Of a DNA stretch of 64,000 bases, positions 2,822 to 60,984 are shown one piece after another. Below the pieces are notes generated by a model that saw nothing but the letters and a program-made list of their open reading frames with translations, did not search any database and was not told the origin of the DNA. A program made the position numbers and the translations under genes. This stretch comes from Pseudomonadota bacterium (GTDB lineage Bacteria; Pseudomonadota; Gammaproteobacteria; Burkholderiales; JBFMAC01). Every line of letters starts with the position of its first letter. Position 1 is the stretch's first letter. The stretch lies in the NCBI GenBank assembly GCA_040756015.1, contig JBFMAC010000001.1, positions 150,475-214,474 on the forward strand, in the 5' to 3' direction.

Positions 2822-5104
2822 TCAGGCCGCGACGAGTTGCCGGGCCAGTGCCACCTCGACGGAATCACCGTCCTGGTTCAGCACGTCCAGTCCCGATTCG
2901 GGCACGTCTCCTGACGTACTTTGCGAGACCATGATCTTGCGGGCCATCAGCCCCAGGCAGGTCATCTGCGAGGAAGCCGCGTAGCCGAGGTAGATCACGC
3001 GCACCGGCAGCTTCTGGCCGATGCGCCAAGAGCGCCGGGCCGCCTGCTGCAGGCTGTAGACGTTGTAGCCGCTCTGGAGAAACACGATCGTCGGAAACTC
3101 CAACAGGTCCAGGCCGGTTTTCACCAGCTCGGGGTTCGTGATGAGCACGTCGATGCCGCGGTCCAACTGCTCGGCGATCCAGTCCTCGCGACGGCTGGCA
3201 TCCACGCTTGCGCGCAACACCGCCACCTTGAAGCCTTCCTGCTCCAGCAGCACCTTCAAACGCGACGTGGTGTCGCGCGTTCCGGTGTAGACCGAATAGA
3301 CCAGCGTCCTGCGACCCGCAGCCTTCTCCTGCTTGCAGATCTCGATCAGCTCGCGTTCCTTGGGCATCAACTCCAGCTCGTTGAACTGAGCCGGAACGAA
3401 CGCCAAGGTCTGGCGCGTGCGCGGATGCACCACCGTCTCCGACCGGAAACAGCAATCCGGCCAGGCCAGCAGCACATTGAGGACCACGCCGAGCAGCGTC
3501 GTGTCGCGCTTGGCCAGCGCCTGTTTCAGGGCCGAGGTCAGACGAAACGACAGGTCGCGATAGGCCGCGTCTTGCGCCGTGTCCATCGCCACCTCGCGGA
3601 ACTCCTCGTCATACGCCGGCAGCACATTGCCACCGATGTCCTTGAGCTTGAGGAAGACCGTGAACGGCAGGACGCAACGCAGCACGCCCTTCGGGCCGAA
3701 GCCCGGCGCCTTGACCGTGCGCACCGATACCTTGGTGCCCTTGGCCGTTTTGTGCGCCGTGCCGGTGCTCTCGGAATAGATGTCCTTGAGGATGCCGTGA
3801 TCGCGCATGAACGCCATCGCGGCCGAGGTCATGCTGCCGCTCTTGGTCGGGCGGTAGCCGTCTTCGATCATTCGCCCAGGCAGGGCTCGGAACAGCAGGT
3901 GGAACAGATCGTCGCCGTATCCGCCCATCAGCGTGCCGGTGAGCAGCAAGGTCTTGCGTGCCTTTGCTGCGAGCACACCCATGGCCTGGCCTTGGGCACT
4001 GCCACCGTTCTTGTACTCGTGCGCCTCGTCGGCGATGAGCAGGTCGAACGTGCCTTGCGGCAGGTAGCGCTTGATGTACTCGCTAGGCTGATACCCACCC
4101 TCGCCGAAACCGAACTCCATGTTCGCCATCGCCCGCTCCATGCGGTGCGCCTGACGATCCGAGAACACCAGTTCGCCGTTGGCATCCATGAGGTTGATGA
4201 ACTCGTGGATGTTGTCGCCGAGCATGGACGCGAGGAACGAGTCGCCGAACTTCTTCATCAGCTTCTGCGCCGTGACTTCCCCGATGGTCGGGATGCGTTG
4301 CAAGGCTTTGAAGACGGCCGTGGACTGGTCGCTGGCGGAGAGGCTGCGCGGTCGCATCAGCGTCCACAGCGGCGCAGCGCAATGGCTGCACCGGCGGCGG
4401 TAGTCCTCGGCTTCGAGTTCGACCGGGTTGATCGGCTCGCCGTCGAGGTTGGTGATGACCTGGCCGCAGTCCGGGCATGCGCCCACGTCGCCATGCTTCG
4501 TGCGCCGCGCGTTGAAGACGGGCTTCCAGTGGAAACCCATGCGCATGCGCACACGCCCGAGCACGTAGAACTCCTGGCCGCGCACCGGCACGCCCAACTG
4601 TTCGCGCAGCTTGATGAGCTTGACCAAGGTGTCCGGGCCATTGAGCACCCAGACCTTGGCGCCGGCCACGGTCTCCTGGATTTCCCGGCGCCACTTGTAG
4701 ACCAGGTGTGGCGGCGAGAGCACCAGCGTGCGGCGGTAGCCTTCGGCGTGCAGCGCGGCCGCCGTGGCGATGCCAACGGTGGTCTTGCCGCAGCCCATCT
4801 CGCCGTTGACGATCGCGGCGCGTTCACCACGGTCGGCCAGCAGCTCGGTGACGGCATGCACCACCTCGGCTTGCGCGCCGAACAGCTTGCGCTTGAGACT
4901 TGCCAGCACAAGTTGGCGATGCGGTCGAGCCTGGCAGGTGTAGACGGGAGGGTTGGCGCGGTTGAGCGAGTCCAGCAGCTCGTCGCCGAATTCGGCAACG
5001 AAGTCCTGAAGGCTCATCGCCAGGGGAGAAGCAGCCGCTTCGAGCAGGTCGCCCTGGACGGGCGTGCCATCGGCGGCGGGAACAACGTCGGTATCGAGGG
5101 ACAT
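2822..5104 (-). CDS. SNF2/DEAD-like superfamily-2 helicase
   Basis: Walker A GEMGCGKTT, DEAH-type LLIADEAHEYKN, C-terminal helicase block QQAARRSWRIGQ, and an internal Cys4 ribbon (CPDCG...CSHCAAP). Start trimmed to ATG 5102-5104, which follows GGAG. The longer ORF-track start has no SD. Confidence 0.85.
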   Translation of the reverse strand: MSLDTDVVPAADGTPVQGDLLEAAASPLAMSLQDFVAEFGDELLDSLNRANPPVYTCQARPHRQLVLASLKRKLFGAQAEVVHAVTELLADRGERAAIVNGEMGCGKTTVGIATAAALHAEGYRRTLVLSPPHLVYKWRREIQETVAGAKVWVLNGPDTLVKLIKLREQLGVPVRGQEFYVLGRVRMRMGFHWKPVFNARRTKHGDVGACPDCGQVITNLDGEPINPVELEAEDYRRRCSHCAAPLWTLMRPRSLSASDQSTAVFKALQRIPTIGEVTAQKLMKKFGDSFLASMLGDNIHEFINLMDANGELVFSDRQAHRMERAMANMEFGFGEGGYQPSEYIKRYLPQGTFDLLIADEAHEYKNGGSAQGQAMGVLAAKARKTLLLTGTLMGGYGDDLFHLLFRALPGRMIEDGYRPTKSGSMTSAAMAFMRDHGILKDIYSESTGTAHKTAKGTKVSVRTVKAPGFGPKGVLRCVLPFTVFLKLKDIGGNVLPAYDEEFREVAMDTAQDAAYRDLSFRLTSALKQALAKRDTTLLGVVLNVLLAWPDCCFRSETVVHPRTRQTLAFVPAQFNELELMPKERELIEICKQEKAAGRRTLVYSVYTGTRDTTSRLKVLLEQEGFKVAVLRASVDASRREDWIAEQLDRGIDVLITNPELVKTGLDLLEFPTIVFLQSGYNVYSLQQAARRSWRIGQKLPVRVIYLGYAASSQMTCLGLMARKIMVSQSTSGDVPESGLDVLNQDGDSVEVALARQLVAA

Positions 5105-5125
5105 GGTGATGCTCCAAATGAAAAG

Positions 5126-5162
5126 AGGCATGCACCTCCCCTGCGGGGCGATGGCATGCCCC
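5126..5162 (-). terminator. terminator-like hairpin abutting the helicase RBS
   Basis: Minus strand reads GGGGCATGCcatcgCCCCgcaGGGGaggtGCATGCCTC, then TTTTCATTT, GGAG, 8 nt and ATG. Confidence 0.5.
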
Positions 5163-5206
5163 GGAGTGGGAAGAAAAGAACGGCGCGCGGCCACGGTGGA
5201 TGAAGC

Positions 5207-5625: not shown

Positions 5626-6744
5626 TCAGCGAATGGTCAGCACCTCGCCACAGGTCAGCGAGCCCGGTGTCATGTCCCAAGCGCGGATGACTGGCACGAA
5701 CTTGTCGGTCAGGATGCGCGTCTCGGCCACGCTGCCGTCGTCGCGCTCGGTGTATTCCGTCTGCAAGGTCTTCTCCTTGTGGGTGTCGCCCTTGACGACG
5801 AGCACACGGCCCGTCTTGGACTTCACCACGCCGGAGATCGCGCCTGCGGCCAAGGCCAGGGCGAGATGCCAGTGAGACAAGGCCCGCGCCGGAGGCCGCA
5901 GCGACTGCTGCGCGGCACCCAGGTGCGTGTCGAGCGTCGGCCAGAGCCCTTGCAGCCGGCCGACTTCGTCGGCGAACTGCTCGGGTTCCATCGTCACGCG
6001 GTAGAAGTGCTCCGGCTCGGCCGGGCTGGCAGGCACCGTGTACGGCAGGAACGGCCATTCAACCGGCAGTTCCTCCGCTTCGGCGTCGCCTTGCCCGATC
6101 TGCAACAGCAGCGCGCGCGTGGCCTTCACCGAATCCGATACCTGGTCGCGCTGGCGAACCTTGCGACCGAAGATCACGACCTGCTTGAACTGCGCTTCCA
6201 CCGCGCGGTAGATGCGCAGCTCGGCGAAATGCCGAGTCAGCCATCCGACCAATTCGGCATCAAGCACGTAGTGCGGCAGGATGTAGACCAGCACGCCGCC
6301 GTACTGCAGCAGCGGAAGCGCCTTCTGATAGAACAGCTTTTCCAGCCTGGCGCGGCCCTGACCCTGGTAGCCGATGTTGCCATTGGCATCCTTGGCCAGG
6401 TCGCCATACGGCGGGTTGAGCCACAGCAGGCCGAAGCTCTGCCGACTGATCAGCGTGTCCATCAGGTCGCCGTGGATGCAGCGATCGACCAGTTGCCGGG
6501 CATGGCGTGCGCGCTCGGCGTCGTACTCGACGGCGAAGGCCAGGACCTGCTCGCGCCCGAGGGCGTGGGCGGCTTCGGCGATCGCCACGCCTTCGCCGGC
6601 GCAGGGATCGAGGATGCACAACGGCCCGGCTGAGGGGGCGGCGGGCGCCAGTGCGGCGAGTGCTCTTTCGAGCGTGGGTTCATCCGTGGGGAAGTACCCG
6701 TTCTTGACGAAGTTGCGGGCGAGCCGCGGGAACATGAGGGCCAT
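5626..6744 (-). CDS. N6-adenine DNA methyltransferase (orphan, no cognate nuclease seen)
   Basis: Motif I LDPCAGEG and motif IV NPPYG. Start set at ATG 6742-6744, preceded by CAGGAG. Confidence 0.8.
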   Translation of the reverse strand: MALMFPRLARNFVKNGYFPTDEPTLERALAALAPAAPSAGPLCILDPCAGEGVAIAEAAHALGREQVLAFAVEYDAERARHARQLVDRCIHGDLMDTLISRQSFGLLWLNPPYGDLAKDANGNIGYQGQGRARLEKLFYQKALPLLQYGGVLVYILPHYVLDAELVGWLTRHFAELRIYRAVEAQFKQVVIFGRKVRQRDQVSDSVKATRALLLQIGQGDAEAEELPVEWPFLPYTVPASPAEPEHFYRVTMEPEQFADEVGRLQGLWPTLDTHLGAAQQSLRPPARALSHWHLALALAAGAISGVVKSKTGRVLVVKGDTHKEKTLQTEYTERDDGSVAETRILTDKFVPVIRAWDMTPGSLTCGEVLTIR

Positions 6745-6814
6745 GGGAATCTCCTGGCGGTAGATGAATGGAAGGGAGCGGACACGCGGGGCGTGCATGT
6801 CCGGTGCGAGAACC

Positions 6815-7471
6815 TCAAGCCGCCGCTTCGAGCAGTTGTGCCGAGGGGATGCGGCCGGCGGGCGTGTCGGCGACGAGCGTGCCGCTGCGGATCAGGCCGC
6901 CCAGCACCTGGGTCAGCGTCGGCACGTCGATAGCGAGCCGATGGCCTTCCAGGGGACCGAGTGCGAACGGCAGGCGCGTCAGCATCGACTTCGCCTGCAG
7001 CAGTTCCAGCACGGGTTCGCGCCAGGGATCGAGAAGCGGCAACGGGCAGGTGTCCCTCACCAGCTTCCACAGCCGGTCGAGCCGGTGCGTGGAATCGCGG
7101 GGCAAGAGCGCCAGCGCGCTGGCATTGGCCTTGTCGGGCTTGACGCAGCGCCGATCGAACAGCCAGATGTTGGTCAGCGAGCCGAACAGCGTGCGCCGGT
7201 AGGCACGTGCGCTGCGCTTTTCCAGGTTCTCGACGTTGCCGACGAAGACCGGGACGCTCGCACCTTGCTCGGTGATGATGTGAAACTGATCCAGTCCCTG
7301 TTCATCCCGGCCCAGGGTGAGACGGGCCAGGAATTCCTGGACGGCGGTGTCGCGTGCCCAGAGGGAGATGAAAACCAGGTTGCCGTTCTCGTCACCCACG
7401 AGGCCATCGGCCATCAGGTCGGGGCACTCGTCGATGCGATAGAGCGTCTTGGGGGAAGCAGGTACAGGCAT
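6815..7471 (-). CDS. hypothetical ICE protein
   Basis: 218 aa from ATG 7469-7471 (GAGGA SD). First gene after structured element A. I recognise no motif. Confidence 0.6.
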   Translation of the reverse strand: MPVPASPKTLYRIDECPDLMADGLVGDENGNLVFISLWARDTAVQEFLARLTLGRDEQGLDQFHIITEQGASVPVFVGNVENLEKRSARAYRRTLFGSLTNIWLFDRRCVKPDKANASALALLPRDSTHRLDRLWKLVRDTCPLPLLDPWREPVLELLQAKSMLTRLPFALGPLEGHRLAIDVPTLTQVLGGLIRSGTLVADTPAGRIPSAQLLEAAA

Positions 7472-7574
7472 GGTGATGTCCTCGAAGTGAGTCGAGGCAG
7501 CACCACCCGAGGGCAATCACTGCCCCAAGGGGATGGAAGAAGACGCGGTGAGCGTCGTGGCAAAGAATCGGACC

Positions 7575-7647
7575 GTGCGTCGCAACGCACCGTAGCCTTG
7601 AAGGTCTGGGCTACCTGGGCATGTTGTCGGCAACGCCGACGGACATG
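7575..7647 (-). promoter_or_regulatory. three-hairpin conserved leader element, copy A
   Basis: Plus strand: GTGCG-tcgcaa-CGCAC c GTAGCC-ttgaaggtctg-GGCTAC ctgggCATG tt GTCGGC-aac-GCCGAC gga CATG. Lies 104 nt upstream of ATG 7471. Confidence 0.6.
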
Positions 7648-7783
7648 GGCCGTAGCCTGCGCCGGACGTGTGTGATGCGGGAGCGAAAAACCGACCCAGC
7701 GCTCCACCCGGTTTCTGCGGAGAGGGAATTGAGCACGAACCCCGTGTCACCAACGGCAGCGTCTTACGGGCACCGAAAGAAAA

Positions 7784-7806
7784 CCGCCCCGGGGACACCG
7801 GGGCGG
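7784..7806 (-). terminator. hairpin terminator (A/T tracts on both sides)
   Basis: CCGCCCCGG-ggaca-CCGGGGCGG, flanked by GAAAGAAAA on one side and AAAAAG on the other. Confidence 0.55.
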
Positions 7807-7938
7807 AAAAAGACTGCGTGGCTCAGGGAGGTGAAGCCAGGGAGGATGCAGCCTCGAATCGATTGTCGCCGACGCGGTGAAACCGTAAAGCCGGTATGCA
7901 TGGCCCCGGAGTCCCCAAAGTCGGGTGCATGCTGAGAC

Positions 7939-7977
7939 GGAAAACAAAGCCGATCACGTCTTCCGACGTGATCGGCT
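7939..7977 (-). terminator. rho-independent terminator after the DUF932 gene
   Basis: Minus strand reads AGCCGATCACGTC-ggaa-GACGTGATCGGCT then TTGTTTTCC. Starts 7 nt after the stop at 7984. Confidence 0.8.
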
Positions 7978-7983
7978 GTTGGC

Positions 7984-8811
7984 TCAGGCTTTGAGCTGAC
8001 GCAGGCCATCGGCGAGCAGCCACAGCGCCCGGTTGAGCCAGACGTTCTGATCGATGCCCTGTACCGGTCGCGTGCGCTGATGACGCCCGTTGGCGGCGCG
8101 GCCGCTCAGGCCGCCCTTGACCAAGTTCTCCTGCACTCGGTTGAAGACGGACCACAGATCGCCGCGGTTGTCGTCGAAACGACGGGGTCGCAGAATTTGA
8201 GTCTCCGTGATCGGCAAGGCCTTACCGGAGTCGTCGTACTTCAAGGTTAGCGCCGATCGGGCGAAGACTTCGGCCTCGCCGTTGTCCAGCGTGATGACTC
8301 GCATGGCGTCACGAGAGTCCTGCACACGGTCGAAGCCGTGCAGCACTTCATAAGCACCTTCGATAACATGATCGGTGACGTTGCCCTTGTGGGGCACGCG
8401 CACATCGGCGAAGGTGTCGCCGCACACCAGGCCGTTGTGGCAGACGAATCTGAACAAGCCCGCGAGCATCTGGTAGCTGCTGCTGCCGTCGTGCGAGTTG
8501 AGCAGGATGATTTCGTTCGCCTCAGCGCCATTGATCTGGCTGGCATGGCGAAGCCGCAGCATGTGCTTGGTGTAGTCGCGGCGATCCTCGTGTCGCACAC
8601 GGGTCTGGCACACCATGAACGGCTGGAAGCCTTCCTTGCGCAGTTCGGTCAGCACAGCCGCCGTGGGGATGTAGCTGTACCGCTCGGAGCGGCTTTCGTG
8701 CGGGGTGTCCGCGAAGATGGACGGGGCCACGGTGTGAATCTGATCGTCCGACAACGGATGGTCAGAGCGTAGCACCGGGGAGCGAGAGGCGAAGCGGGAT
8801 GCGAGTTGCAT
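7984..8811 (-). CDS. DUF932 (DUF945) family protein
   Basis: 275 aa from ATG 8809-8811 (AAGGAG SD). SERYSYIPT...LLNSHDGSSSYQ...VCHNGLV is typical of DUF932 proteins of ICEs and plasmids. Confidence 0.8.
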   Translation of the reverse strand: MQLASRFASRSPVLRSDHPLSDDQIHTVAPSIFADTPHESRSERYSYIPTAAVLTELRKEGFQPFMVCQTRVRHEDRRDYTKHMLRLRHASQINGAEANEIILLNSHDGSSSYQMLAGLFRFVCHNGLVCGDTFADVRVPHKGNVTDHVIEGAYEVLHGFDRVQDSRDAMRVITLDNGEAEVFARSALTLKYDDSGKALPITETQILRPRRFDDNRGDLWSVFNRVQENLVKGGLSGRAANGRHQRTRPVQGIDQNVWLNRALWLLADGLRQLKA

Positions 8812-8950
8812 GATGATCTCCTTGCGGAATGGAGCAATCGGCATCCAGCGGCCGAGGCCGGATGCGCGCGATTGCGTGGGACGAAGAAAAGCCCTGCTGA
8901 ACAGGGTCTGATGAAAGGGGTGAAGCAGCGAGCGCAGCGTGACAGCCGGC

Positions 8951-9220
8951 CTACGGAGCCGAGACCGGCTCCCACCCGCGGGTATGCGGGTTGAAGCACA
9001 GTACTTCCTGGCCTTTGGTGATCGGCGTGAAGCCGTCGAGGAAGACGTGGCGCAGGTACAGCGCGCGGTAGGTCAGTGCCTGCCACGCCTGGTCTTCGCT
9101 CAGGCCGTTGGCGATGAAGTGCTCGCGCAGTTCGTCGTCGTCGGAAACCTCGTTGTTGGCCAACTGGTCTTCGACGAAGCGCAGCAGCTCGGGCGGCAAG
9201 GACGACAGGATGGTGTCCAT
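8951..9220 (-). CDS. small hypothetical ICE protein
   Basis: 89 aa from the internal ATG (MDTILSSLPPELL...). The upstream gene stops at 9228. Confidence 0.55.
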   Translation of the reverse strand: MDTILSSLPPELLRFVEDQLANNEVSDDDELREHFIANGLSEDQAWQALTYRALYLRHVFLDGFTPITKGQEVLCFNPHTRGWEPVSAP

Positions 9221-9227
9221 GTGCGCC

Positions 9228-9623
9228 TCACTGGGTGGCTGCATCGCCGGTCGCACTGCGGGTCGGCTGCTGTTGGTGGAAGGCATGCACCCGTGCGCGC
9301 CAGGTGGCGCAGCGCTGCGGCGCCATGTTCAGATAGCGCAGCGGGCACGAGTAGTAGTACGGGTGCTCGGCCTCGACCAGGGACTTGTAGCCCCATTCGC
9401 GGCCCTCGCTTTCCAACAGATGGCAGCCGATCAAGGTGGCCGACTCGCCGGGCGCGAGACCCAGAACGCCGGCCTGCTTGGCGGTGATGCGCACCACCGT
9501 CCACAATACGTTGCTGACCAGCGTGTGGTCGATGACCTCAATGCGGGACCGCTCGGTGTCCTCGGTTGCGGTCAGCTCGCGGATCAACTGATCGCGCGTC
9601 ATACGAACGAATGTCCAGCCCAT
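9228..9623 (-). CDS. hypothetical ICE protein
   Basis: 131 aa from ATG 9621-9623 (AGGAG SD), reading MGWTFVRMTRDQL...HPYYYSCPLRYL. The long ORF-track N-terminus is Arg/Pro/Ser-rich and overlaps the next gene. Confidence 0.6.
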   Translation of the reverse strand: MGWTFVRMTRDQLIRELTATEDTERSRIEVIDHTLVSNVLWTVVRITAKQAGVLGLAPGESATLIGCHLLESEGREWGYKSLVEAEHPYYYSCPLRYLNMAPQRCATWRARVHAFHQQQPTRSATGDAATQ

Positions 9624-9732
9624 GGAATGGCTCCTGTGAAAAGGGCCGGAGTCCTCCCGCCGGGGAAGGAGCCCCGGCGGGTGGTGAAAGCCGCACGAAT
9701 GCGGCGTAGAGCGGCGTGGAACCGCGGTCGGC

Positions 9733-10362
9733 TCAGACCCTGGCGAGGTGCCAGTCCTGGGACAGCGGAGCGAACTCGTAGCCCAGGTCGCCGAGGCGGT
9801 CGCGCTGCTGACGCAGCACGCGCCGATCCACGGTGGCATCGAGCTTGACGGGATCGCCCAGCGGCCAGAGTGGGCCGAACAGCGCCGCGTCGTCGGCGTC
9901 GTCCGCCTGGGCCAAAGCCTCGGTAGACGCAGCAGCCGGCTCATTGCCGAACGGCGTGGTATCGACCAGCGGGTCGCGCGAACTGCGCGCCTTCTTCCGG
10001 CCGGCCGCCTTGGGGGCGGTCGTCGGCGTCGGCGCGGGAGCTTGTGCTTCCTCGTCGATCGGATCGACTTCCTGCGGACTCAGCCGGCTGGCGTCGTCGC
10101 GGCTCAGGGCGTCGATGGCTGACAAGGTCATGCCGCCCAGCAAGGCGCGGATCTCGATGACCATGCGGCCGTTGGCGGTGTACGTGGACGGGCGAATCTC
10201 CGCGATGGCGAAATCGCCCTCGTACTTGCCTTCGGTGTACTGATCGAGTTCGGCGCTCTTCACGACGAACTCGCCGATGGAGGTCGCGAGGCGGCCGACG
10301 TTGAAGTCGCCGTTGCGGCCGTGGATGGTCTTGATGGCCAATTGGCCGGGAATGGTGATCAT
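9733..10362 (-). CDS. DUF3275 family protein
   Basis: 209 aa. The N-terminus MITIPGQLAIKTIHGRNGDFNVGRLATSIGEFVVK...YEGDF matches my memory of DUF3275. Confidence 0.75.
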   Translation of the reverse strand: MITIPGQLAIKTIHGRNGDFNVGRLATSIGEFVVKSAELDQYTEGKYEGDFAIAEIRPSTYTANGRMVIEIRALLGGMTLSAIDALSRDDASRLSPQEVDPIDEEAQAPAPTPTTAPKAAGRKKARSSRDPLVDTTPFGNEPAAASTEALAQADDADDAALFGPLWPLGDPVKLDATVDRRVLRQQRDRLGDLGYEFAPLSQDWHLARV

Positions 10363-10433
10363 GAAGAACTCCTGCGGACGAAGCTGCGATCGCGCACACG
10401 GCCGTCATGGCGACGGTCAGGTGCGGATGCAAG

Positions 10434-10468
10434 TGAGAAGAAGACAAGGCCCCGAGGAACGGGGCCTT
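10434..10468 (-). terminator. rho-independent terminator after the DUF3577 gene
   Basis: Minus strand reads AAGGCCCCG-ttcct-CGGGGCCTT then GTCTTCTTCTC. Confidence 0.65.
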
Positions 10469-10473
10469 GCGGA

Positions 10474-11022
10474 TCAGAACGACTCGGCAACTTCCAATGC
10501 GGGGGCATCGGCAGCGGCTTCATCGGCAGCTTCGGCGGCGGGCTCGGACGCAGCGGCTTGCGGTTCGGCGGAAGTCTTGAGGACATCCGTGTCGCGCACG
10601 TCGCTTTCGTCGCGGTCTTCAGTCGGCTTGGGCTCGGCCTTGTAGACGAGCTTGCCGTCGACCTTGATCCAACTGACGAACAGCAGGCGGGCTTTGAAGC
10701 TCACCCCCTGCTCACCGGCACGCTTGCCCTTGGAGTAGGTGAAGGTGTCGGCCCACAGGTCGCCCAGACGGAAGCCGATCATCACCTTCTTCTCGGCATC
10801 GACCGCTTGGATGCAGCGGCGCACCAGGTGCTGCGCTTCGGAGCCGGAAACGCGCGTGTCGAAACGCACGTAAGCCACGTCATCGCTGGGGCCGTTGAGT
10901 GCCGCGATGTCGCAGGCCAGGAACGCATCGCCTTTCTTGGGCTTCACTTCGCGGATACGATTGAGATACCCGAGGCCGGTGATGTGCAGGTCGAAGTAGG
11001 ACTTGTCGGTGGAAGTGGTCAT
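10474..11022 (-). CDS. DUF3577 family protein
   Basis: 182 aa from ATG 11020-11022 (CAGGAG SD). YFDLHITGLGYLNRIREVKPKKGDAFLACDIAAL is typical of DUF3577. Has an acidic Ala/Glu-rich tail. Confidence 0.75.
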   Translation of the reverse strand: MTTSTDKSYFDLHITGLGYLNRIREVKPKKGDAFLACDIAALNGPSDDVAYVRFDTRVSGSEAQHLVRRCIQAVDAEKKVMIGFRLGDLWADTFTYSKGKRAGEQGVSFKARLLFVSWIKVDGKLVYKAEPKPTEDRDESDVRDTDVLKTSAEPQAAASEPAAEAADEAAADAPALEVAESF

Positions 11023-11180
11023 GGTGAATCTCCTGAGAACAAAGAGGCGGAGACACACCCGACCCAAGGCGGGGAAGGTGTGGAACCCCCGCGTGGGTTG
11101 AAGGAACAGCTTGGGTGGCATCACCATCGGGAGAGCCGATGGTCGTTCGCGCTGGGATGCCGGTGCGAACTGGTTGATCA

Positions 11181-11259
11181 ATGCGGTCGGAACCGCATCG
11201 CAGTCTTGAAGATCGAGACTGCCTGGGCATGCTGCTGACGGGCGTCAGCGGAACATGCC
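11181..11259 (-). promoter_or_regulatory. three-hairpin conserved leader element, copy B
   Basis: Plus strand: ATGCGG-tcggaa-CCGCAT c GCAGTC-ttgaagatcga-GACTGC ctgggCATG ct GCTGAC-gggc-GTCAGC ggaa CATGCC. Lies 159 nt upstream of ATG 11022. Confidence 0.6.
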
Positions 11260-11352
11260 TGCAGCGTGGCGCCAGACCCGCGCCCGCGCGAGTGGCAATC
11301 GGCACCGGCGGCCGTCCGCATTGCTGGCTGGCGTGAGTTGAGGGGCCGCCCG

Positions 11353-11381
11353 GAAAAGAGAAAAGCCCCCGTGAGGGGGCT
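11353..11381 (-). terminator. rho-independent terminator after the DUF3085 gene
   Basis: Minus strand reads AGCCCCC-tcac-GGGGGCT then TTTCTCTTTTCC. Confidence 0.75.
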
Positions 11382-11395
11382 GGAAAGCAGGACGA

Positions 11396-11761
11396 TCAGT
11401 GGCCGACCGGCGCAGCGGGCACCGGCTGCATCGACAGGTGCGTGGCCGTGGCCGACACTTCGAGGTCGTCCTCGCTGTGCAGGATGCGGGCGAACATCCG
11501 TTCCTGCAGGTCGAAGAACTCGCCGAAGTCGTCGCCGCCGAACTCGGCGCGCGCCAGTTCCCACCAGTCATCGAACGCATCGACGTCGGGGTTGCAACCC
11601 ACGGCGTAGGCGATGGTCTTGCGCCGCCCATCGGGCCGGCTCTCGCCGCGCTCGGCCATGAAATACACGCCCTGGTCCTTGACCAGGATGACGCGGCACT
11701 GGTTAGCCGCTGCCTCGGCGAGCACGGGCCGAAGCGCGGTGCCTTTGAATCGAACAGTCAT
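11396..11761 (-). CDS. DUF3085 family protein
   Basis: 121 aa from ATG 11759-11761 (GGAG SD), reading MTVRFKGTALRPVLAEA...VILVKDQGVYFMA... Confidence 0.65.
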   Translation of the reverse strand: MTVRFKGTALRPVLAEAAANQCRVILVKDQGVYFMAERGESRPDGRRKTIAYAVGCNPDVDAFDDWWELARAEFGGDDFGEFFDLQERMFARILHSEDDLEVSATATHLSMQPVPAAPVGH

Positions 11762-11838
11762 GGAAGTGATCTCCAACGGGGAATGCGAAGAAGGCTTCCC
11801 GCCGCGAGGACGGGAAGCCGCTGGGGGACGTGAGGGGA

Positions 11839-12636
11839 TCAGTGCTGGACGGGCTTGCGACCGGACAGACGCTGCACGCGGATGAGGCGCCAGCTCCCGT
11901 CGTCGATCAGCCGCTCCAGCACCTGGCCCAAGGAGTCGAAGAACACTTCATCGACTCGCTCGACCGGTTCGCCGTCGCGGTGCAGTTCCACCGCGTAGGT
12001 GTCGACGCCGCGTTCGTAGAGCACGGTGACGCGCCCCTGGAACTTCGCCGAAGCAACGGTGAAGCCAATGGCCGGCGGCGTGGCGATGATGTTGCCGGGG
12101 CTCGGATCGACCACCGTGAAGTCCCGCGCGCCGGCATCCACCAGCAAGTGCGTGATGCGCCGGAAGCCATCGGGCGCGGGCAACTGCTCCAGTTGGCGGA
12201 CCAGCTCCTGCAACTCGGGGCACTGCGGCTCGGCGATCGGCAGCTTGGCCGGAGCCGAACCCAGGATGAGCCGCTTCACCGTGTAGGCTTGGCCGCCAGC
12301 GGTGAACTCGGTGCTTTCTTCGGGCGTGTCCGCGCGCAGGCCGTCGAAGCGGCGCCGCGCGTAGGGTGCTACCTGCACCTTGGCGCCTTCGTCGGGCACG
12401 TCGGTGACGAGCGCCTTGTCGAGCACAGCGAACTCGGCCCGCCCCGTCTTGACGACGATGGCCTCATCGGTGGTGGCGATGACCTTGCCCTCGAAGGGCT
12501 TGGGATCGACGTGGAAGCCAAGCGCTGAAACCTTGGGCTGGCCGTCGAAGATGTTGAACTTGAAGCTGCGGACGTTGGAAGGCACGTGGCCGCGAACCAG
12601 CGTCGGCATTTGTGCGCGGATGGCTTGGGTATCCAT
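11839..12636 (-). CDS. hypothetical ICE protein
   Basis: 265 aa from ATG 12634-12636 (AAGGAG SD). The ORF-track N-terminal extension covers the leader and element C and is not credible. Confidence 0.6.
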   Translation of the reverse strand: MDTQAIRAQMPTLVRGHVPSNVRSFKFNIFDGQPKVSALGFHVDPKPFEGKVIATTDEAIVVKTGRAEFAVLDKALVTDVPDEGAKVQVAPYARRRFDGLRADTPEESTEFTAGGQAYTVKRLILGSAPAKLPIAEPQCPELQELVRQLEQLPAPDGFRRITHLLVDAGARDFTVVDPSPGNIIATPPAIGFTVASAKFQGRVTVLYERGVDTYAVELHRDGEPVERVDEVFFDSLGQVLERLIDDGSWRLIRVQRLSGRKPVQH

Positions 12637-12748
12637 GGGAAAGCTCCTTGTGGCAAACCAAGGAACTTCCGCCCACAATGGAGGCATGTCCCTTGGGGGT
12701 GAGGTGGATGGACGCGACATGCGCCCGGAGAAGGATGAACAACCAGCA

Positions 12749-12820
12749 CGGCGAACCGCGCCGCAGCCTCGAAGGTCTCGGCTGCCTGGGCATGCTTGCC
12801 GGCAACGCCAGCGAACATGC
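12749..12820 (-). promoter_or_regulatory. three-hairpin conserved leader element, copy C
   Basis: Plus strand: CGGCG-aaccg-CGCC GCAGCC-tcgaaggtctc-GGCTGC ctgggCATG ctt GCCGGC-aac-GCCAGC gaa CATGC. Lies 113 nt upstream of ATG 12636. Confidence 0.6.
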
Positions 12821-12890
12821 GAGCAGCGTGCGTCAGGCGCAGGCCGGCGTCGCACAGGAATCGGCATTGCGCCGCCACCGGCTTGGGCCA

Positions 12891-12917
12891 GAAATGAAAC
12901 GAGCCCCGCGGGGGCTC
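12891..12917 (-). terminator. rho-independent terminator after the 12929-13645 gene
   Basis: Minus strand reads GAGCCCC-cgc-GGGGCTC then GTTTCATTTC. Confidence 0.7.
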
Positions 12918-12928
12918 GAAAGGTGGTG

Positions 12929-13645
12929 TCACTCGTCGTAGATCGTCAATCCGTCCAGCACTTGCGCATCGGCATCGAAGACCAGCATACGCACGTCGGC
13001 GAGCGCGGCCAGGTGCAGTACCTGCACCAGGGATTCCGGCATGCCCTTCTTGCGGTGCTCCTGCATCAGCCGCTTGGCCGTGATGCCTTCGACTGCGCGC
13101 AGGTTCTCGTCGGTCCAGGGCGTGGCGATCAGCTTCAACCCGATGGCCGGGCTGTACGGGATACGGAAGGCGATGAACAGGAACAGCGTCGGCGTGGCGA
13201 TGTCGGCCAGCTCGGCGAGGAAGCGATGCGCCTCGGCGTCGAGGTGCGCGCTGCTGATCTCCCAGCATCGGCTGTAGAAGCCGGTTTCATAGCGCAAGCG
13301 GCGCACCACATCGCGGGCTGCTTCCTCGGAGTAGGTATCGCCCACGTGCAGCGGCTTGCCCTCTTCCTCGGCCATCACAGCGTAGACCACGTTGCGGGCA
13401 AGCCCGTGGCTGCGGCATTGCGCCTGCAGTTCATCGGGAACCGCCTGGTCTTCGGTGATCAGGACGAAGTCGTCCGAAAAGATACAGGCCCGCCGTTCGA
13501 CCTGGCTGTCCGGCAGATGCGACTGCGAGGGATGCAGCGGCAGGTAGGTCAGCGGGCAATCGTCGTCGTAGGAGACGGCGAGCAGCCGCTGGACGGACAG
13601 GCCGTCGTAGCCGCGGACAAAGGGATTGTTGTTCGAGTAGGACAT
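12929..13645 (-). CDS. hypothetical ICE protein
   Basis: 238 aa from ATG 13643-13645 (GGAGAAA SD), reading MSYSNNNPFVRGYDG... The 413-aa ORF-track version is an Arg/Pro-rich artefact upstream of this start. Confidence 0.6.
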   Translation of the reverse strand: MSYSNNNPFVRGYDGLSVQRLLAVSYDDDCPLTYLPLHPSQSHLPDSQVERRACIFSDDFVLITEDQAVPDELQAQCRSHGLARNVVYAVMAEEEGKPLHVGDTYSEEAARDVVRRLRYETGFYSRCWEISSAHLDAEAHRFLAELADIATPTLFLFIAFRIPYSPAIGLKLIATPWTDENLRAVEGITAKRLMQEHRKKGMPESLVQVLHLAALADVRMLVFDADAQVLDGLTIYDE

Positions 13646-13791
13646 GGGATTTCTCCAGCAGAGGATGGCCGAGGCAATCCCCTGCTGGGGATTGAACCCC
13701 AGCGGGTGGAAAAACGTGAAGCAGCGGCCCGCCGGTGAGCGGCGGGAGAAACTGCCGTTCGATTTGGGCGGGCGTGCCCGGAGAAGAAAGA

Positions 13792-13822
13792 GGGACATGG
13801 CCGCGGGTGCGGCGCATGTCCC
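13792..13822 (-). terminator. terminator-like hairpin after the 13867-14259 gene
   Basis: Minus strand reads GGGACATG-c-GCCGC-accc-GCGGC-CATGTCCC then TCTTTCTTCTC. Confidence 0.55.
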
Positions 13823-13866
13823 TCGTTGGGGGCGAGGATGGAGGCGTTGGTGCGCCGCAGCGCAGC

Positions 13867-14259
13867 TCACCAGCCGTTGTAGTTCAGCGTTAGGTCGGCG
13901 ATGACCTTGCGCCGTTCCAGGTCGAGGCCGCCCAGGTCGGACAGACCCTCGAAGCCGCAACGCTTGAGCATCGCGCCGCCCTCGCGGGCGTTGTAGAAGC
14001 TCACCATCGCGGACAGAAACATCCGCTGGCCGCTGCTCAGCACGCCGAGGGCGTCGTTGAGCATCAGCAGCTTCGGCCGCAGATCCCACTTGGTGGTGGC
14101 ACGCTGCAAGCCCTCGCGAGTTCCGTCGCCGAACTATTCGGTTCCGGCGATGTGGACGCCGCGTTTCCACGCCTCGAAGAAGGCTTGGGGCGCGGCGGCG
14201 AAGTGCTGGTGTTCCAGCTCGATCTGATCAAGTACCTCTTGAGGCAGGGCACGGTTCAT
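13867..14259 (-). pseudogene. small ICE gene interrupted by one in-frame TAG (or two tiny ORFs)
   Basis: ATG 14257-14259 (AGGAG SD) opens MNRALPQEVLDQIELEHQHFAAAPQAFFEAWKRGVHIAGTE. A TAG follows at 14134-14136. The same frame then continues FGDGTREGLQRATTKWDL...NYNGW to 13867. Confidence 0.5.
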
Positions 14260-14284
14260 GACATGGGCTCCTGGTGGTTGGACA

Positions 14285-14536
14285 TCACGGGTGGAGGCGC
14301 TGCTGCCAGCGGCCCGTTTGCAGGGCGTGCTCGGCGGCGTGGAGCGAGCGGAAGTAGCTGACCGACTCGCGCGAGACCGGGCCGTCCGCATCGGCGGTGC
14401 CGATGTAGTGACCGGCCGCGCTGCACAGCACCTGCAGGCGTAGGCGCTTGCCGACGTAGGCCAGGGCCTGGTAGCCGATGGATTCGGCGCGGGCCTGTTC
14501 AGCACTGAAAGGTGCCGATGCGAACGCAAGGGACAT
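14285..14536 (-). CDS. small hypothetical ICE protein
   Basis: 83 aa from ATG 14534-14536 (CAGGAG SD), reading MSLAFASAPFSAEQ...GHYIGTADADGPVSRESVSYF. Confidence 0.6.
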   Translation of the reverse strand: MSLAFASAPFSAEQARAESIGYQALAYVGKRLRLQVLCSAAGHYIGTADADGPVSRESVSYFRSLHAAEHALQTGRWQQRLHP

Positions 14537-14676
14537 GGTTTTCTCCTGGTGGTTGAAGACCGGGAGCACCACGCCCTGACGGGAGCGGAAGACTCCCGAG
14601 GGGTTGAACATCGAAAGCACCCGCGTCGTGGCGACGTGCGTCCGCGGTGGTCGGTGCGAAGCGGACTGGATCGGTC

Positions 14677-14753
14677 AACGCGGTGAAGCGCGTTGCAGCC
14701 TTGAAGACCGGGGCTGCCAGGGCATGGTGCTGACGACCGTCAGCGACACATGC
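14677..14753 (-). promoter_or_regulatory. three-hairpin conserved leader element, copy D
   Basis: Plus strand: AACGCG-gtgaag-CGCGTT GCAGCC-ttgaagaccgg-GGCTGC cagggCATG gt GCTGAC-gacc-GTCAGC gaca CATGC. Lies 141 nt upstream of ATG 14536. Confidence 0.6.
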
Positions 14754-15341
14754 GGGAAGGATGGAAGCGCGGCAGTGCGCCGTCGCCGATCAAACGGAAC
14801 CGCCCGCCGTCCGGTTTGGCCTGGGCGCTACCGCCCGCGGCGATGCACGATCCGTCTGCCCACGACAAAGGCGCCGAAGTCCAAAAGGACTTCGGCTGGA
14901 GAGGAACCAATCCACCTGTGGGCTGCAAGCAGGCCAGGCCGTCGTCAAAGCCATTCGCTGCGTCAGCAATCTCACCCGGCCCGTTTCGTGGCTGGGGCCG
15001 GCATCCTCTGGCATGTATCCACACACAAAGGGAACCCGTTGTTTCGCCGGCGGGCACCGGCACCGAATACCGTCGACCGCAAGCGGTCTCCTGGCACCTC
15101 GAAGCCTTGCGGGCCAAGGCGTCAGGAGATCGCTCGCGGATGGACGCAAGCACCTCGATCAACAGAACCGCGACAAGCGCGATTTGATGGAGCAATGACC
15201 TTCTCGTCCTGCAGCCGTGATCGGCCTGTGCAGGACGCGCACACCGTTGCAGAAGGGAACGCGCGCTGGGGAGTCCCGCGGGGCGCGGGAGGTTTGCCCC
15301 GCCGTCGGCAGCAGCCGGCGTGGCAGAGGGAGACGTGGGCG

Positions 15342-17384
15342 TCAGTTCGCCCTGGGGCGCCGACGCGGTGTGCCGGATGTGTGGCCGGAAGTACGGCTGG
15401 ACGGGCCGCGCTTGGCTGCCGCGGCGTCTTCGACCGGCTGCGTACCCTTGCAGTCCGGGTAACGGCTGCAAGACCAGAACGCGCCGCTCTTGCCGGTGCG
15501 TTGGCGCATCGGGGCGCCGCACTGCGGGCAGCTCGGTGCGGGCGGCAGCTTAATGGCGAGCGTGACGCCGCGGTACTGCTGCACGAGCTGGGCGACCCAG
15601 CTCGACTGCTTGGCGATGAAGGTGTCCAGCGTCATCTGGCCGGCCTCAATCATGTCCAGCGCCTGCTCCCACACCGCCGTGGTGCCGGGATCGGCGATGG
15701 CCGCCGGCACCGCGTCGATCAACGTGAAGGCCGCATCCGATGCGCGGATGGCGCGGCCTTTCTTCAAGAGATAGCCGCGGGCCAGCAGCCCGCTGATGAT
15801 GTTCGCACGCGTGGCCTCGGTGCCGATGCCGGTGGTGTCCTTGAGCTTCTGCTTCAGGCGCGGGTCGGTCACGAGCTTGGCGACGCCCTTCATGGCCTTG
15901 ACCAGCTCGCCCTGCGTGTATGGCTTGGGCGGCAGCGTCTTCAACGCCTTCAGTTCGACCTGGCCGACCTGGCAGGCGACACCAGCCTGCAGCGGCGGCA
16001 ACACCTGGCCGCGCTGCGCGTCCTCGCCATCACCGTCTTCGGGCTCCGGCACCGCCAGCACCTGGCGCCATCCGGCCACCGCGATCTGCTTGCCGACTGC
16101 GACCAGCGACTGCCCACCGCACATGAGCTGCGCCACCGTCCGGTCGAACTCGTGATGCGGCAGGAACTGTGCGAGGTAATGGGCGCGGATCAGCCGGTAG
16201 ACGGCCAGCTCCTTGTCGCTCATCGCCGAGAGGTTGGCCGGCTCCAGCGTGGGAATGATGCCGTGGTGCGCTGTGACCTTGCCGTCGTTCCAGGCCCGCG
16301 AACGCTGGTTGCGGTCCAGGCGGTCGATCAGTGGCCGCTGGCTGGGATCGGTCTTGACCAGGCTATCGAGCACGGCCGGCACCTCGGCTAGCATGCTCTC
16401 GGGCAAGTAGCCCGAATCCGAGCGCGGATACGTCGTTGCCTTGTGCGTCTCGTACAGCGCCTGGGCAATGTCCAGCGTTTCCTGCACGTCGAGGCCCAAC
16501 TGCTTGGAACACACCTCCTGCAAGGTGCCGAGGTCGAACGGCAGCGGCGGGCCTTCGCGCACGCGCTCGGTCTCCACCGACAGCACCTGGGCAGTGCCGC
16601 CCGCGCGCAGCCGTTCAGAGGCTTGCTGCGCCACCGGCTGCTGCAAGCAGCGGCCGGCGTCGTCGGTGCTGCCCTGTGGCGGCATCCAGTTGGCGACGAA
16701 GGACTGGCCCGCATGCGACAGCGCCACCTCGATGGCCCAGAACGGCACGGAGACGAAACGCGCGATCTCGCGATCACGGTCCACGACCAGCTTGAGCGTC
16801 GGCGTCTGCACCCGTCCGACCGACAGCACGCCGTTGTAGCCGGCCTGCCGGCCCAGCAGCGTGAACAGGCGGCTCAGGTTCATCCCGATCAGCCAGTCGG
16901 CGCGGGATCGGGCGAGCGCGGAGAAATACAGCGGCAGCGTCTCGGCCGATGGCTTGAGCGAACCCAACGCCTTGCGGATGGACGCATCGTTGAGCGCCGA
17001 CAGCCACAGTCGCTGGATCGGGCCGCGGTAGCCGCACAGCTCGACGATCTCGCGGGCGATCATCTCGCCCTCGCGATCAGCGTCGGTGGCGATCACCAGC
17101 TCGCCCGCCTTGGCGACGAGCTGCTGCACGACCTTGAACTGCGCCGCGGTCGCCGCCTTGGGCTCGACACGCCAGCGCTCGGGAAGAATGGGCAATTGCT
17201 CGATGGCCCAGCGCTTGTATTGCTCGCCGTAGCCTTCGGGCGGAACCGCCTCGACCAGATGTCCGATGCACCAGGTAACGACGACACCCGCACCGCTGTA
17301 GCAGCCGTTGCCGCGTTGGCCGGCGCCCAGCACACGGGCAATGTCCTTGCCCTGGGACGGCTTTTCGCACAGGAACACGCGCAT
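15342..17384 (-). CDS. topB: DNA topoisomerase III
   Basis: 680 aa with Toprim N-terminus MRVFLCEKPSQ, active-site region ATTYPRSDSGYLP, and a C-terminal Zn finger CPQCG...CSRYPDCKG. GGAGG SD. Confidence 0.92.
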   Translation of the reverse strand: MRVFLCEKPSQGKDIARVLGAGQRGNGCYSGAGVVVTWCIGHLVEAVPPEGYGEQYKRWAIEQLPILPERWRVEPKAATAAQFKVVQQLVAKAGELVIATDADREGEMIAREIVELCGYRGPIQRLWLSALNDASIRKALGSLKPSAETLPLYFSALARSRADWLIGMNLSRLFTLLGRQAGYNGVLSVGRVQTPTLKLVVDRDREIARFVSVPFWAIEVALSHAGQSFVANWMPPQGSTDDAGRCLQQPVAQQASERLRAGGTAQVLSVETERVREGPPLPFDLGTLQEVCSKQLGLDVQETLDIAQALYETHKATTYPRSDSGYLPESMLAEVPAVLDSLVKTDPSQRPLIDRLDRNQRSRAWNDGKVTAHHGIIPTLEPANLSAMSDKELAVYRLIRAHYLAQFLPHHEFDRTVAQLMCGGQSLVAVGKQIAVAGWRQVLAVPEPEDGDGEDAQRGQVLPPLQAGVACQVGQVELKALKTLPPKPYTQGELVKAMKGVAKLVTDPRLKQKLKDTTGIGTEATRANIISGLLARGYLLKKGRAIRASDAAFTLIDAVPAAIADPGTTAVWEQALDMIEAGQMTLDTFIAKQSSWVAQLVQQYRGVTLAIKLPPAPSCPQCGAPMRQRTGKSGAFWSCSRYPDCKGTQPVEDAAAAKRGPSSRTSGHTSGTPRRRPRAN

Positions 17385-19398: not shown

Positions 19399-19517
19399 GG
19401 TGACGACTCGCGGTAAGGGAACGAGCCGCCAGCATCGGCATCGCCCGGAAGGGCGTCAGTCAACAAACCGCAGCGGGTGCACTCCCGGTTGTCGTTCGGG
19501 AAGGCTGCGTGTTCTAT

Positions 19518-19534
19518 CTATCCCCTGGGGATAG
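19518..19534. promoter_or_regulatory. palindrome CTATCCCCTGGGGATAG (copy 2, 17-bp core)
   Basis: 120 nt upstream of ATG 19398, with the same core as the 21-bp palindromes. Confidence 0.55.
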
Positions 19535-19606
19535 TTCCGCGCTCCGGGCTTCGACGGTGCGACCCATGGCAGAACCGAAGCCGATGGCTGGAAGACTTCG
19601 TATCCC

Positions 19607-19627
19607 AGCTATCCCCTGGGGATAGCT
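19607..19627. promoter_or_regulatory. perfect 21-bp palindrome AGCTATCCCCTGGGGATAGCT (copy 3)
   Basis: Lies 2 nt after the stop (19630) of the STY4528-like gene and 91 bp centre-to-centre from copy 2. Confidence 0.6.
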
Positions 19628-19629
19628 GC

Positions 19630-54402: not shown

Positions 54403-54425
54403 GGCATCGCTCCTCCATTATGTGA

Positions 54426-55993: not shown

Positions 55994-56135
55994 GCGATGT
56001 TCTCCTGTTGAATCGATGCGGGTTTGTCGTGCAGGCAGGCCAGGTTCTTACAGATCGCCTCCAACAAGTTGAAGGTGTAAGAAGCAGAAGCCTCGGAGCG
56101 ACTAAATGTCATCTTTCAACTTTTTGGACTAAGAC

Positions 56136-57002: not shown

Positions 57003-57204
57003 GTATGGAAGATGGCCTTGGTCCACCTCCAATTGCCGTGCTGTTGGAATTAGAGAATGGCACCCACTGCAGCGAACTCACAGCCGTGCGACTGAATGAC
57101 TAAACGACAAGAGTCATATGCCGCGAGTCTGTCACGTGCGGCCCCGCGTAAGCGAAGGGGGCGGCTTCCCTTCGCCACGCGAAAACGCCGAGTAGGAGCC
57201 CGCA

Positions 57205-60962: not shown

Positions 60963-60984
60963 GGAATTGGACGGTTTGGGTTTG

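Follow-up and report, generated by a model that had tools for sequence, protein, structure and literature searches.

The window analyzed here, a 64,000-nucleotide (nt) stretch of contig JBFMAC010000001.1 from a bacterium of the Burkholderiales (assembly GCA_040756015.1), contains four related intergenic repeats that are copies of the radC RNA motif (Rfam family RF01754), already catalogued and so not new. Our analysis indicates that radC RNA is probably a cis-acting leader RNA of the transfer-competence regulon of integrative conjugative elements (ICEs), acting after transcription. Because Rfam has listed the motif since 2010, the finding matters little as a discovery; what the present analysis adds is a connection, open to experiment, of this orphan Rfam motif with the BisDC regulon of ICEclc-family elements.

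Identity of the repeats

A scan of the window against Rfam 15 matched all four segments to RF01754, on the minus strand and at full length (model positions 1-149 of 149 in each, with no copy truncated); the curated gathering score of the family is 40 bits. From here on the copies and the gene cassettes that follow them are lettered A to D.

14617-14762, minus strand: radC RNA copy D, 113.5 bits
12669-12829, minus strand: radC RNA copy C, 91.2 bits
11118-11267, minus strand: radC RNA copy B, 124.2 bits, E 2.5e-23
7505-7657, minus strand: radC RNA copy A, 90.3 bits

A permissive scan of the whole window detected no RF01754 copies beyond these four, and no other Rfam family matched them, even at E<=10. 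The original prediction, made from the DNA letters, had described four homologous segments of about 75 nt whose positions, stem sequences and spacing to the first ATG (104-159 nt, counted from the segment ends) were all correct, and all four are RF01754 matches far beyond chance. Its three-hairpin unit was too short, as the true unit is about 150 nt long; the segment described was the 5' half, and a 4-bp pseudoknot and a 3' domain were missed. The further suggestion that the motif was uncatalogued, or that its presence before four different cassettes would be an extension, does not hold, as RF01754 has been known since 2010 to precede several unrelated gene classes. A possible identity with candidate motifs named after DUF3577 and DUF3085 had also been raised; the copies belong to RF01754, and no family of either name was among the matches at E<=10, a result qualified by the unconfirmed presence of both models in the Rfam release searched. 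The main text of the 2017 motif catalogue mentions neither radC nor DUF3577 nor DUF3085.

The radC RNA motif was published with 167 sequences (Weinberg et al. 2010, Genome Biol 11:R31) and, given its covariation, its stems of variable length and its stable tetraloops, was graded as a confident structured RNA. These authors placed it in potential 5' untranslated regions (UTRs) of radC, integrase and methyltransferase genes and of an anti-restriction gene in Proteobacteria, that is, before several unrelated classes of DNA-related genes, and gave its function as unknown. Other genomes, too, commonly carry three or four copies in consecutive cassettes, and those of the window recur every 1.5-3.6 kb beside ssb and topB. 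A plasmid database search returned only six records with the motif, which is therefore mainly chromosomal or ICE-borne.

A pseudoknotted fold supported by covariation

Homologs were collected with a degenerate core pattern, which retrieved 119 loci (cited below by L numbers) from species-representative genomes. The four copies of the window were then turned into a covariance model, which identified 174 copies across the window plus 99 of the 119 loci, and covariation statistics were calculated on 105 distinct homologous sequences from other genomes. Standard pairs filled 97.6% of the pair cells, and changes on both sides of the stem were found at 16 of the 24 pairs, values reached by none of 500 shuffles. 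Sliding the 3' partners by 1-3 columns lowered pairing to 21-41%. The compensatory stem changes noticed in the four copies were thus borne out on a much broader alignment, and the two checks proposed with them, a covariance model from the four copies and an Rfam scan, yielded strongly covarying homologs and the identification of RF01754, respectively. Single-sequence folding reproduced the hairpins but was uninformative: the shuffles, being GC-rich, fold well too, and z-scores over the two strands ranged from +1.0 to -4.8.

Read in transcript order, the element begins with a nested hairpin, P1 (P2 of the original prediction), followed by the conserved junction CCCAGG, hairpin 2 (formerly P1) and the variable tetraloop hairpin 3 (formerly P0). 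The 11-nt loop of hairpin 2 consists of a 4-nt pseudoknot arm and an invariant UUCRA. Loop bases 3-6, which read GACC, GAUC, GACC and GGUC in copies A to D, pair with the 4 nt just 3' of hairpin 3, forming a 4-bp pseudoknot that is 98.6% paired on the broad alignment, with two covarying middle pairs (AU:64/GC:35 and UA:61/CG:41). This is the pseudoknot already labelled in the 2010 alignment (radC.sto), where a 4-column block is followed by about 42 columns and a second block (Weinberg et al. 2010).

Beyond hairpin 3 and the pseudoknot, a 3' domain contains further helices. Among these, the 6-bp helix a:a' (GUUCGC:GCGAAC; alignment columns 92-97 with 113-118) is paired in 100% of 48 distinct sequences and includes two compensatory positions, one of them in copy D of the window (GUCCGC:GCGGAC). 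It is mutually exclusive with the invariant 3-bp outer P4 pairing of the RF01754 model.

14723-14752, minus strand: copy D, P1
14695-14717, minus strand: copy D, hairpin 2
14677-14694, minus strand: copy D, hairpin 3
14706-14709 with 14673-14676, minus strand: copy D, pseudoknot GGUC with GACC
14661-14666 with 14640-14645, minus strand: copy D, helix a:a', GUCCGC with GCGGAC
12774-12777 with 12741-12744, minus strand: copy C, pseudoknot GACC with GGUU, including one G:U
11211-11214 with 11176-11179, minus strand: copy B, pseudoknot GAUC with GAUC
11165-11170 with 11145-11150, minus strand: copy B, helix a:a'
7603-7606 with 7571-7574, minus strand: copy A, pseudoknot, loop GACC with partner GGUC, paired by hand one base off the model register

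Two side observations concern this fold. Helix a:a' together with a GCAUCC:GGAUGC helix would form a second pseudoknot. The invariant part of the hairpin 2 loop, UUCAA or UUCGA, lies on the minus strand at 7598-7602, 11206-11210, 12769-12773 and 14701-14705; UUCRA matches the T-loop consensus of tRNA T-arms and could be a structural docking module.

Polarity of the folded molecule

On the gene-sense strand, the alignment contains 168 G:U pairs versus 16 A:C pairs, or 101 versus 13 when the position at which G:U is the commonest pair is set aside (this pair is G:U in 67 of 105 sequences). The loops of hairpin 3 are of UNCG type in about 55 of 111 sequences and of GNRA type in 14 of 111, about 60% together, and both are RNA-stabilizing tetraloops. 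The excess of G:U on the sense strand, which corresponds to A:C mismatches on the opposite strand, and the RNA-type tetraloops assign mRNA polarity to the folded molecule, which is most simply RNA. A single C:A pair, in copy C, that becomes G:U on the minus strand had been the hint for the mRNA-sense strand, and it generalizes to the whole alignment.

Promoters and transcription units

To describe upstream features, all copies were anchored on the first C of P1. A -10-like hexamer, cAnnCT, lies at -11..-6 (with A2 and T6 of the -10 type), and a palindromic box, AA-N3-GG-N12-gCCGnTT, was present in 74 of 111 distinct copies, with CCGnTT at -45..-40. The hexamer follows the box by 28 nt, P1 begins about 7 nt after the hexamer, and the A2/T6 hexamer was in register in every box-bearing copy (74/74). 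When the window was scanned with a position weight matrix (PWM), the four boxes upstream of radC RNA ranked first.

14786-14823, minus strand: promoter box of copy D, PWM score 27.8; -10-like CATCCT at 14758-14763
12853-12890, minus strand: promoter box of copy C, PWM score 28.4; -10-like CACGCT at 12825-12830
11291-11328, minus strand: promoter box of copy B, PWM score 31.2, the best of the window; -10-like CACGCT at 11263-11268
7682-7719, minus strand: promoter box of copy A, PWM score 23.3; -10-like CAGGCT at 7654-7659, register -12

A fifth box (19459-19496, minus strand) stands upstream of the AcaB-like, ssb and topB genes and is followed by no radC leader. Its spacing to TGCCGATGCT is the identical 28 nt, TTGACT comes directly after it, and it resembles the mapped PinR promoter of ICEclc (-35 TTGACT, -10 TGTCGATCCT). 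Because this copy keeps the same -10 spacing with no radC leader, the box is a DNA-level promoter element and not part of the RNA fold. The box resembles the published motif of the transfer-competence promoters of ICEclc and the BisC ChIP consensus as described, and it is probably the BisC/BisDC activator site of ICEclc-family elements. A fifth RNA hairpin formed by this palindromic block was considered and rejected, since the block occurs at the AcaB-like promoter without radC RNA and fits the published promoter motif. The ideas of a sigma-54 promoter and of a -35 element within a stem were likewise discarded, as the spacing is wrong and the stems covary. No sigma-70-type consensus promoter was found on either strand of 7000-15500.

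Two copies in Pseudomonas graminis (L042; 5547-5634 and 6195-6286, plus strand), one of which precedes an 87-amino-acid (aa) open reading frame (ORF) with no Pfam match, both have no box; in its place is a textbook sigma-70 promoter, with a perfect TTGACA that precedes the hexamer (CATTCT or AATGAT) by 17-18 nt. This spacing places the start about 7 nt past the hexamer, where P1 begins, and we infer that transcription begins with the first base of P1 or no more than a few bases away from it.

Terminators enclose the cassettes, and the terminator scan found 14 where 5.8 were expected. That each copy lies downstream of the terminator of the previous cassette, as had been claimed, is confirmed for copies A, B and C; copy D is preceded by a terminator-like hairpin.

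14873-14896, minus strand: terminator-like hairpin after topB, upstream of copy D
12900-12918, minus strand: terminator at the end of cassette D
11364-11381, minus strand: terminator at the end of cassette C
7948-7977 and 7784-7806, minus strand: terminators at the end of cassette B

At copy C, about 10 nt separate the terminator stem of the prior cassette, which ends at 12900, from the box downstream of it (12853-12890), and in many homologs the T-tract of the terminator reaches to within a few bases of the box. Because the terminator stops about 10 nt or less before the box, no other promoter fits in the gap. Each cassette is its own transcription unit. Two terminator-like hairpins were also seen inside cassette B on the minus strand, at 10444-10470 after the DUF3577 gene and at 8892-8906 before the DUF932 gene; such internal hairpins may set differential expression within the operon.

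Genomic setting

The gene order, all on the minus strand, is parA, an ICE_PFGI_1-type ParB gene (the equivalent of BisD), DUF2857, a STY4528-family gene, an AcaB/DUF1845-like gene, ssb, topB and cassettes D, C, B and A. This gene set is the conserved border cluster of ICEclc/PFGI-1/SPI-7-type elements, and the host element is an ICEclc-type ICE. Upstream of the AcaB/DUF1845-like gene are two inverted repeats that are near-perfect relative to bisS of ICEclc, the BisD loading site: CAGCTATCCCCAGGGGATAGCTG at 19606-19628 and AACTATCCCCAGGGGATAG at 19518-19536. Neither a relaxase nor an oriT was identified in the annotated part of the window.

Cassette D, minus strand: 83-aa ORF (14285-14536), small ORFs, and a gene with a DUF5983 C-terminal domain (12929-~13798)
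Cassette C, minus strand: 265-aa gene with a weak KfrB-like match (11839-12636) and DUF3085 gene (11396-11761)
Cassette B, minus strand: DUF3577/STY4534-family gene (10474-11022), DUF3275 gene (9733-10362), small ORFs, and DUF932 gene (7984-8811)
Cassette A, minus strand: 218-aa ORF (6815-7471), DUF6094 methyltransferase (5626-6798), 101-aa ORF, and SNF2-type helicase (2822-5194)

Among the cassette proteins, PADLOC matched the methyltransferase and the SNF2 helicase and nothing else, and a sequence search of the PDB returned nothing for the DUF3577 protein.

A candidate small RNA (sRNA) was noted at 7780-7860 on the minus strand, between the cassette B terminator and the promoter of copy A. 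It consists of a hairpin with two CCUCCC motifs, resembling anti-Shine-Dalgarno (anti-SD) sequences, and then the strong terminator at 7784-7806. Its match to anti-hemB (RF02837) is below threshold (38.6 bits versus 49.5, E 2.5e-6), with weaker matches to mmgR/suhB and ncS54; its folding z-score is -2.3, and near-identical elements occur in loci L109 and L112. Elsewhere in the window, three tandem tRNA genes lie at 60886-61168 (plus strand), and the region from about 25.5 to 58 kb, which has few ORFs with high GC content at third codon positions, may be cargo or a different island.

Correspondence with ICEclc transcripts and promoters

The sequence-level comparison with ICEclc (Gaillard et al. 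2010; Sulser et al. 2022; Antar et al. 2025) was drawn from printed motif rows and from ICEclc-like loci (for example L008 and L028, and also L031 and L060).

In the promoter-motif table of Sulser et al. 2022 (S3 Fig), the rows for PalpA, PinR, P88400, P67231 and Pint carry sequences like GCCGTTTCC, which is the 3' half of the box, whereas the rows for P81655 and P58432 read ...GACGTTGT...CGACATGCC(C)AGGTAGTCC, which corresponds to P1 of radC RNA and the junction. It seems that MEME merged the P1 sequence and the activator box into one ICEclc motif. The printed distance of -195 bp for P81655 agrees with the 225-226-nt leader of ICEclc-like copies of the DUF3577 class. The printed P81655 string had no exact match in the retrieved loci, which may be due to a text-extraction error or to a real difference; close variants are present there. 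For the box itself, sharp BisC peaks in chromatin immunoprecipitation (ChIP) were reported at 11 such promoters, one of them upstream of orf84835, with a 15-nt BisC consensus forming a weak inverted repeat spaced by 12 bp (Antar et al. 2025).

Transcript mapping defined 85934-88400, 83350-84835, 68241-81655 and 53587-58432 as separate ICEclc transcripts, the first three being among the most strongly induced in stationary phase (Gaillard et al. 2010). In the same study, rapid amplification of cDNA 5' ends (5'-RACE) failed upstream of ORFs 58432, 81655 and 88400, and a 'very weak' primer-extension product was obtained about 250 nt upstream of ORF81655. The highest RNA-seq coverage of the ICE was later observed upstream of ORF81655, without matching reporter output, and post-transcriptional regulation was suggested; transfer into an isogenic recipient was unaffected by deletion of the cassettes (Sulser et al. 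2022). The accessible portions of the three papers make no mention of a structured leader or of radC RNA. A stable, highly structured leader RNA, produced in donor cells that are transfer-competent, is consistent with these data and would offer an explanation both for the failure of 5'-RACE at these ICEclc promoters and for the contrast of very high RNA coverage with modest reporter output ahead of ORF81655.

Leader classes and downstream genes

In 143 of 150 copies, an ORF preceded by a Shine-Dalgarno (SD) sequence starts 48-180 nt past the 91-nt core, and the first downstream gene is KfrB-like in 43 of these, a DUF3577 gene in 38 and RadC in 24. The four cassettes of the window begin with ATG codons at 7471, 11022, 12636 and 14536, each with an SD. 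The spacers that follow the conserved domain are specific to the leader class, 30-95 nt long and conserved within each class, and each has a sequence able to pair with the SD.

11023-11082, minus strand: leader B platform, with CACACC at 11077-11082, GGUGUGUCUCC at 11049-11059 and GGAGAUUCACC at 11023-11033 (from the SD to the base before AUG)
Leader A, minus strand: anti-SD/SD pairing CCUCGA:UCGAGG
Leader C, minus strand: anti-SD/SD pairing UCCUUG (within 12658-12665):CAAGGA (within 12644-12650), with an upstream CAAGGGA mimic
Leader D, minus strand: anti-SD CUCCCG at 14561-14566 with CAGGAGA at 14542-14548 (CUCC:GGAG), with a CGGGAG mimic

In leader B, GGUGUGUCUCC is able to pair with either flank, the upstream CACACC being a competitor of GGAGAUUCACC. 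Similar anti-SD/SD layouts were found in the radC-gene class. These arrangements suggest translational control through SD occlusion; in a partition-function test of 101 leaders, the median probability that the SD is unpaired was 0.175 and the mean z-score was -0.85 versus dinucleotide shuffles.

The radC-gene class has a different context. There, an ORF for a DsbA-like protein (250-340 aa) extends across P1 to its stop codon, the UAG within CCCAGG-UAG-CC, such that the motif overlaps the 3' end of the ORF. Because copies of this class are intercistronic and have no promoter, the element can also act between cistrons, and protection of the 5' end was rejected as a universal role for the same reason.

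Proposed function and alternative explanations

The claim that the repeats are a structured cis element in cassette leaders and not a plain operator is upheld, and the element is likely to act at the RNA level. In the unit that we propose, the terminator of the prior cassette would be followed by the box, 28 nt, cAnnCT, a start at P1, the radC leader of about 150 nt, a spacer of 30-95 nt, and the SD and start codon. The leader would be transcribed together with the cassette genes from the minus strand, and a trans-acting factor (a protein or, with lower probability, a small ligand or an sRNA) would recognize its pseudoknotted domain as a platform and set the translation and/or stability of the cassette mRNAs downstream. 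The targets would be the mRNAs that transfer-competent donor cells make from the establishment and anti-defence cassettes. A binding platform for a regulator, one of the roles listed in the original prediction, is plausible; our confidence in any specific trans-acting factor is much lower than in a cis element acting at the RNA level. The model predicts a leader that starts at the transcription start of BisDC-dependent promoters, an RNA fold rather than transferred single-stranded DNA (ssDNA), and the identity of two rows of the published ICEclc 'promoter motif' table with the radC leader.

Several observations weigh against this model. The position of the transcription start is inferred rather than mapped, and the one published hint for ICEclc, the 'very weak' primer-extension product, lies roughly 25 nt upstream of the placed P1. 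About 25 copies preceding radC genes (L018, L020, L034, L040, L062 and about 20 others) have no promoter of their own. The alignment in which the G:U bias was counted had been fitted to a sense-strand model, and this slightly favors G:U. The signal for SD occlusion is modest, with <=10% of the shuffles as occluded in 33 of 101 leaders, and no mutually exclusive pairing that would tie the conserved domain to the SD-occluding helices was found. Finally, the searchable literature yielded no functional study of, or experiment on, radC RNA.

A more specific version of the leader model can be offered tentatively, and is rather doubtful as it stands. Here radC RNA would be a pseudoknotted sensor, transcribed from +1 of BisDC promoters or located between cistrons before radC genes, that gates translation of establishment and anti-defence genes through the SD-occluding helices in response to an ICE-encoded factor. 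Candidates for this factor are free ssDNA-binding protein or the CCUCCC-type sRNA next to copy A; T4 gene 32 autoregulation at a 5' pseudoknot provides the analogy for the former. If this version were true, cassette proteins would be made only while ICE ssDNA is being processed.

A small-molecule riboswitch, in which the 5' pseudoknotted domain is an aptamer controlling the class-specific SD-occluding helices, is unlikely. The complex, conserved pseudoknotted fold with invariant unpaired nucleotides and the anti-SD/SD arrangements in every leader class would be consistent with it, and Weinberg et al. left 'switch?' open, citing this complexity. However, the regulated genes have no metabolic theme in common, no conserved switching helix connects aptamer and platform, the distance to the SD varies between 30 and 95 nt, and the statistics of SD occlusion are weak.

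Alternatively, the repeats might be a structured ssDNA signal of sense polarity, either a primase or PriA-type priming site or a site for an ICE DNA-processing protein, if the sense strand were the one transferred or displaced. The sense-strand polarity of the fold, its association with conjugative elements and DNA-processing genes, and its close repetition beside ssb and topB are all compatible with such a signal, and the authors of the motif catalogues note that their type of method cannot tell ssDNA motifs from RNA motifs. Nevertheless, we consider it very unlikely: the tetraloops are of RNA type, one position has G:U as its commonest pair, the fixed spacing to the -10 element and start codons would be unneeded by a priming site, and the ORF81655 leader of ICEclc has high RNA coverage.

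Processive antitermination, in which nascent radC RNA would modify the polymerase and permit readthrough in long ICE operons, had been among the roles put forward originally. The position at the start of multi-gene units and the terminator-like hairpins inside cassette B speak for it, and the EAR element of Bacillus also has a pseudoknot. The ICEclc unit that begins upstream of ORF81655 is moreover the longest. In ICEclc, however, Northern blots and reverse transcription PCR (RT-PCR) defined the radC-led units 85934-88400 and 83350-84835 as discrete transcripts of 2.6-3.0 kb, with 'absence of RNA readthrough' into the next unit. Since the radC-led ICEclc units stop at their terminators, this argues against antitermination; in the window, too, a strong terminator closes each cassette, with the next promoter box immediately behind it, and no Rfam antiterminator family matches the copies. 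This role is therefore also very improbable.

The remaining proposal, an Frpo-like single-strand promoter in which the transferred template strand folds and RNA polymerase of the recipient transcribes the cassettes before second-strand synthesis, would suit the plasmid leading region-like gene content (the ssb/topB neighborhood, methyltransferase, DUF5983, and RadC in other genomes), the placement of one element before each cassette as with Frpo at leading-region genes, and the lack of a sigma-70 consensus promoter in 7000-15500, yet it is extremely unlikely because it requires a folded plus (template) strand, which is contradicted by the strand asymmetry, and because the UNCG and GNRA tetraloops point to RNA, the freely covarying stems hold no -35/-10 hexamers and form no -35/-10 duplex, a conventional promoter architecture lies upstream at fixed spacing, and donor cells express the homologous cassettes of ICEclc from promoters that depend on BisDC.

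Comparison with known systems

The leader RNA proposed here shares with the Frpo/ssi elements of the F and ColIb-P9 leading regions (Masai & Arai 1997; Samuel & Burstein 2024) the repetition of a structured element before several establishment-type cassettes. Frpo/ssi, however, folds from the template strand into a long imperfect hairpin in which -35/-10 duplexes are rebuilt, whereas radC RNA in the window consists of short covarying hairpins and pseudoknots with an ordinary promoter upstream. Like HK022 put, Bacillus EAR and pLS20 conAn, it is a structured RNA near the start of long mobile-element operons; it has no sequence or structure match to such RNAs in Rfam, and the homologous ICEclc units terminate normally.

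The closest structural correspondence is with radC RNA as defined by RF01754, with which the window copies share the nested P1 hairpin with CAUG...CAUG, the CCCAGG junction, the hairpin with an 11-nt loop ending in CUUCAA, the tetraloop hairpin, the pseudoknot, the 3' hairpin and the placement, in sense orientation, ahead of DNA-related genes. The 3' half of the model is matched less well by copies A and C, and the window differs from the name-giving context in that none of its four downstream genes is radC. At the level of the whole element, the ICE_PFGI_1 ParB/BisD-like protein, DUF2857, the AcaB/DUF1845-like protein, ssb, topB and the bisS-like sites are shared with the ICEclc family. With the transfer-competence promoters P88400, P84835, P81655 and P58432 of ICEclc, the cassettes of the window have the promoter box in common; the ICEclc cassettes are separate induced transcripts.

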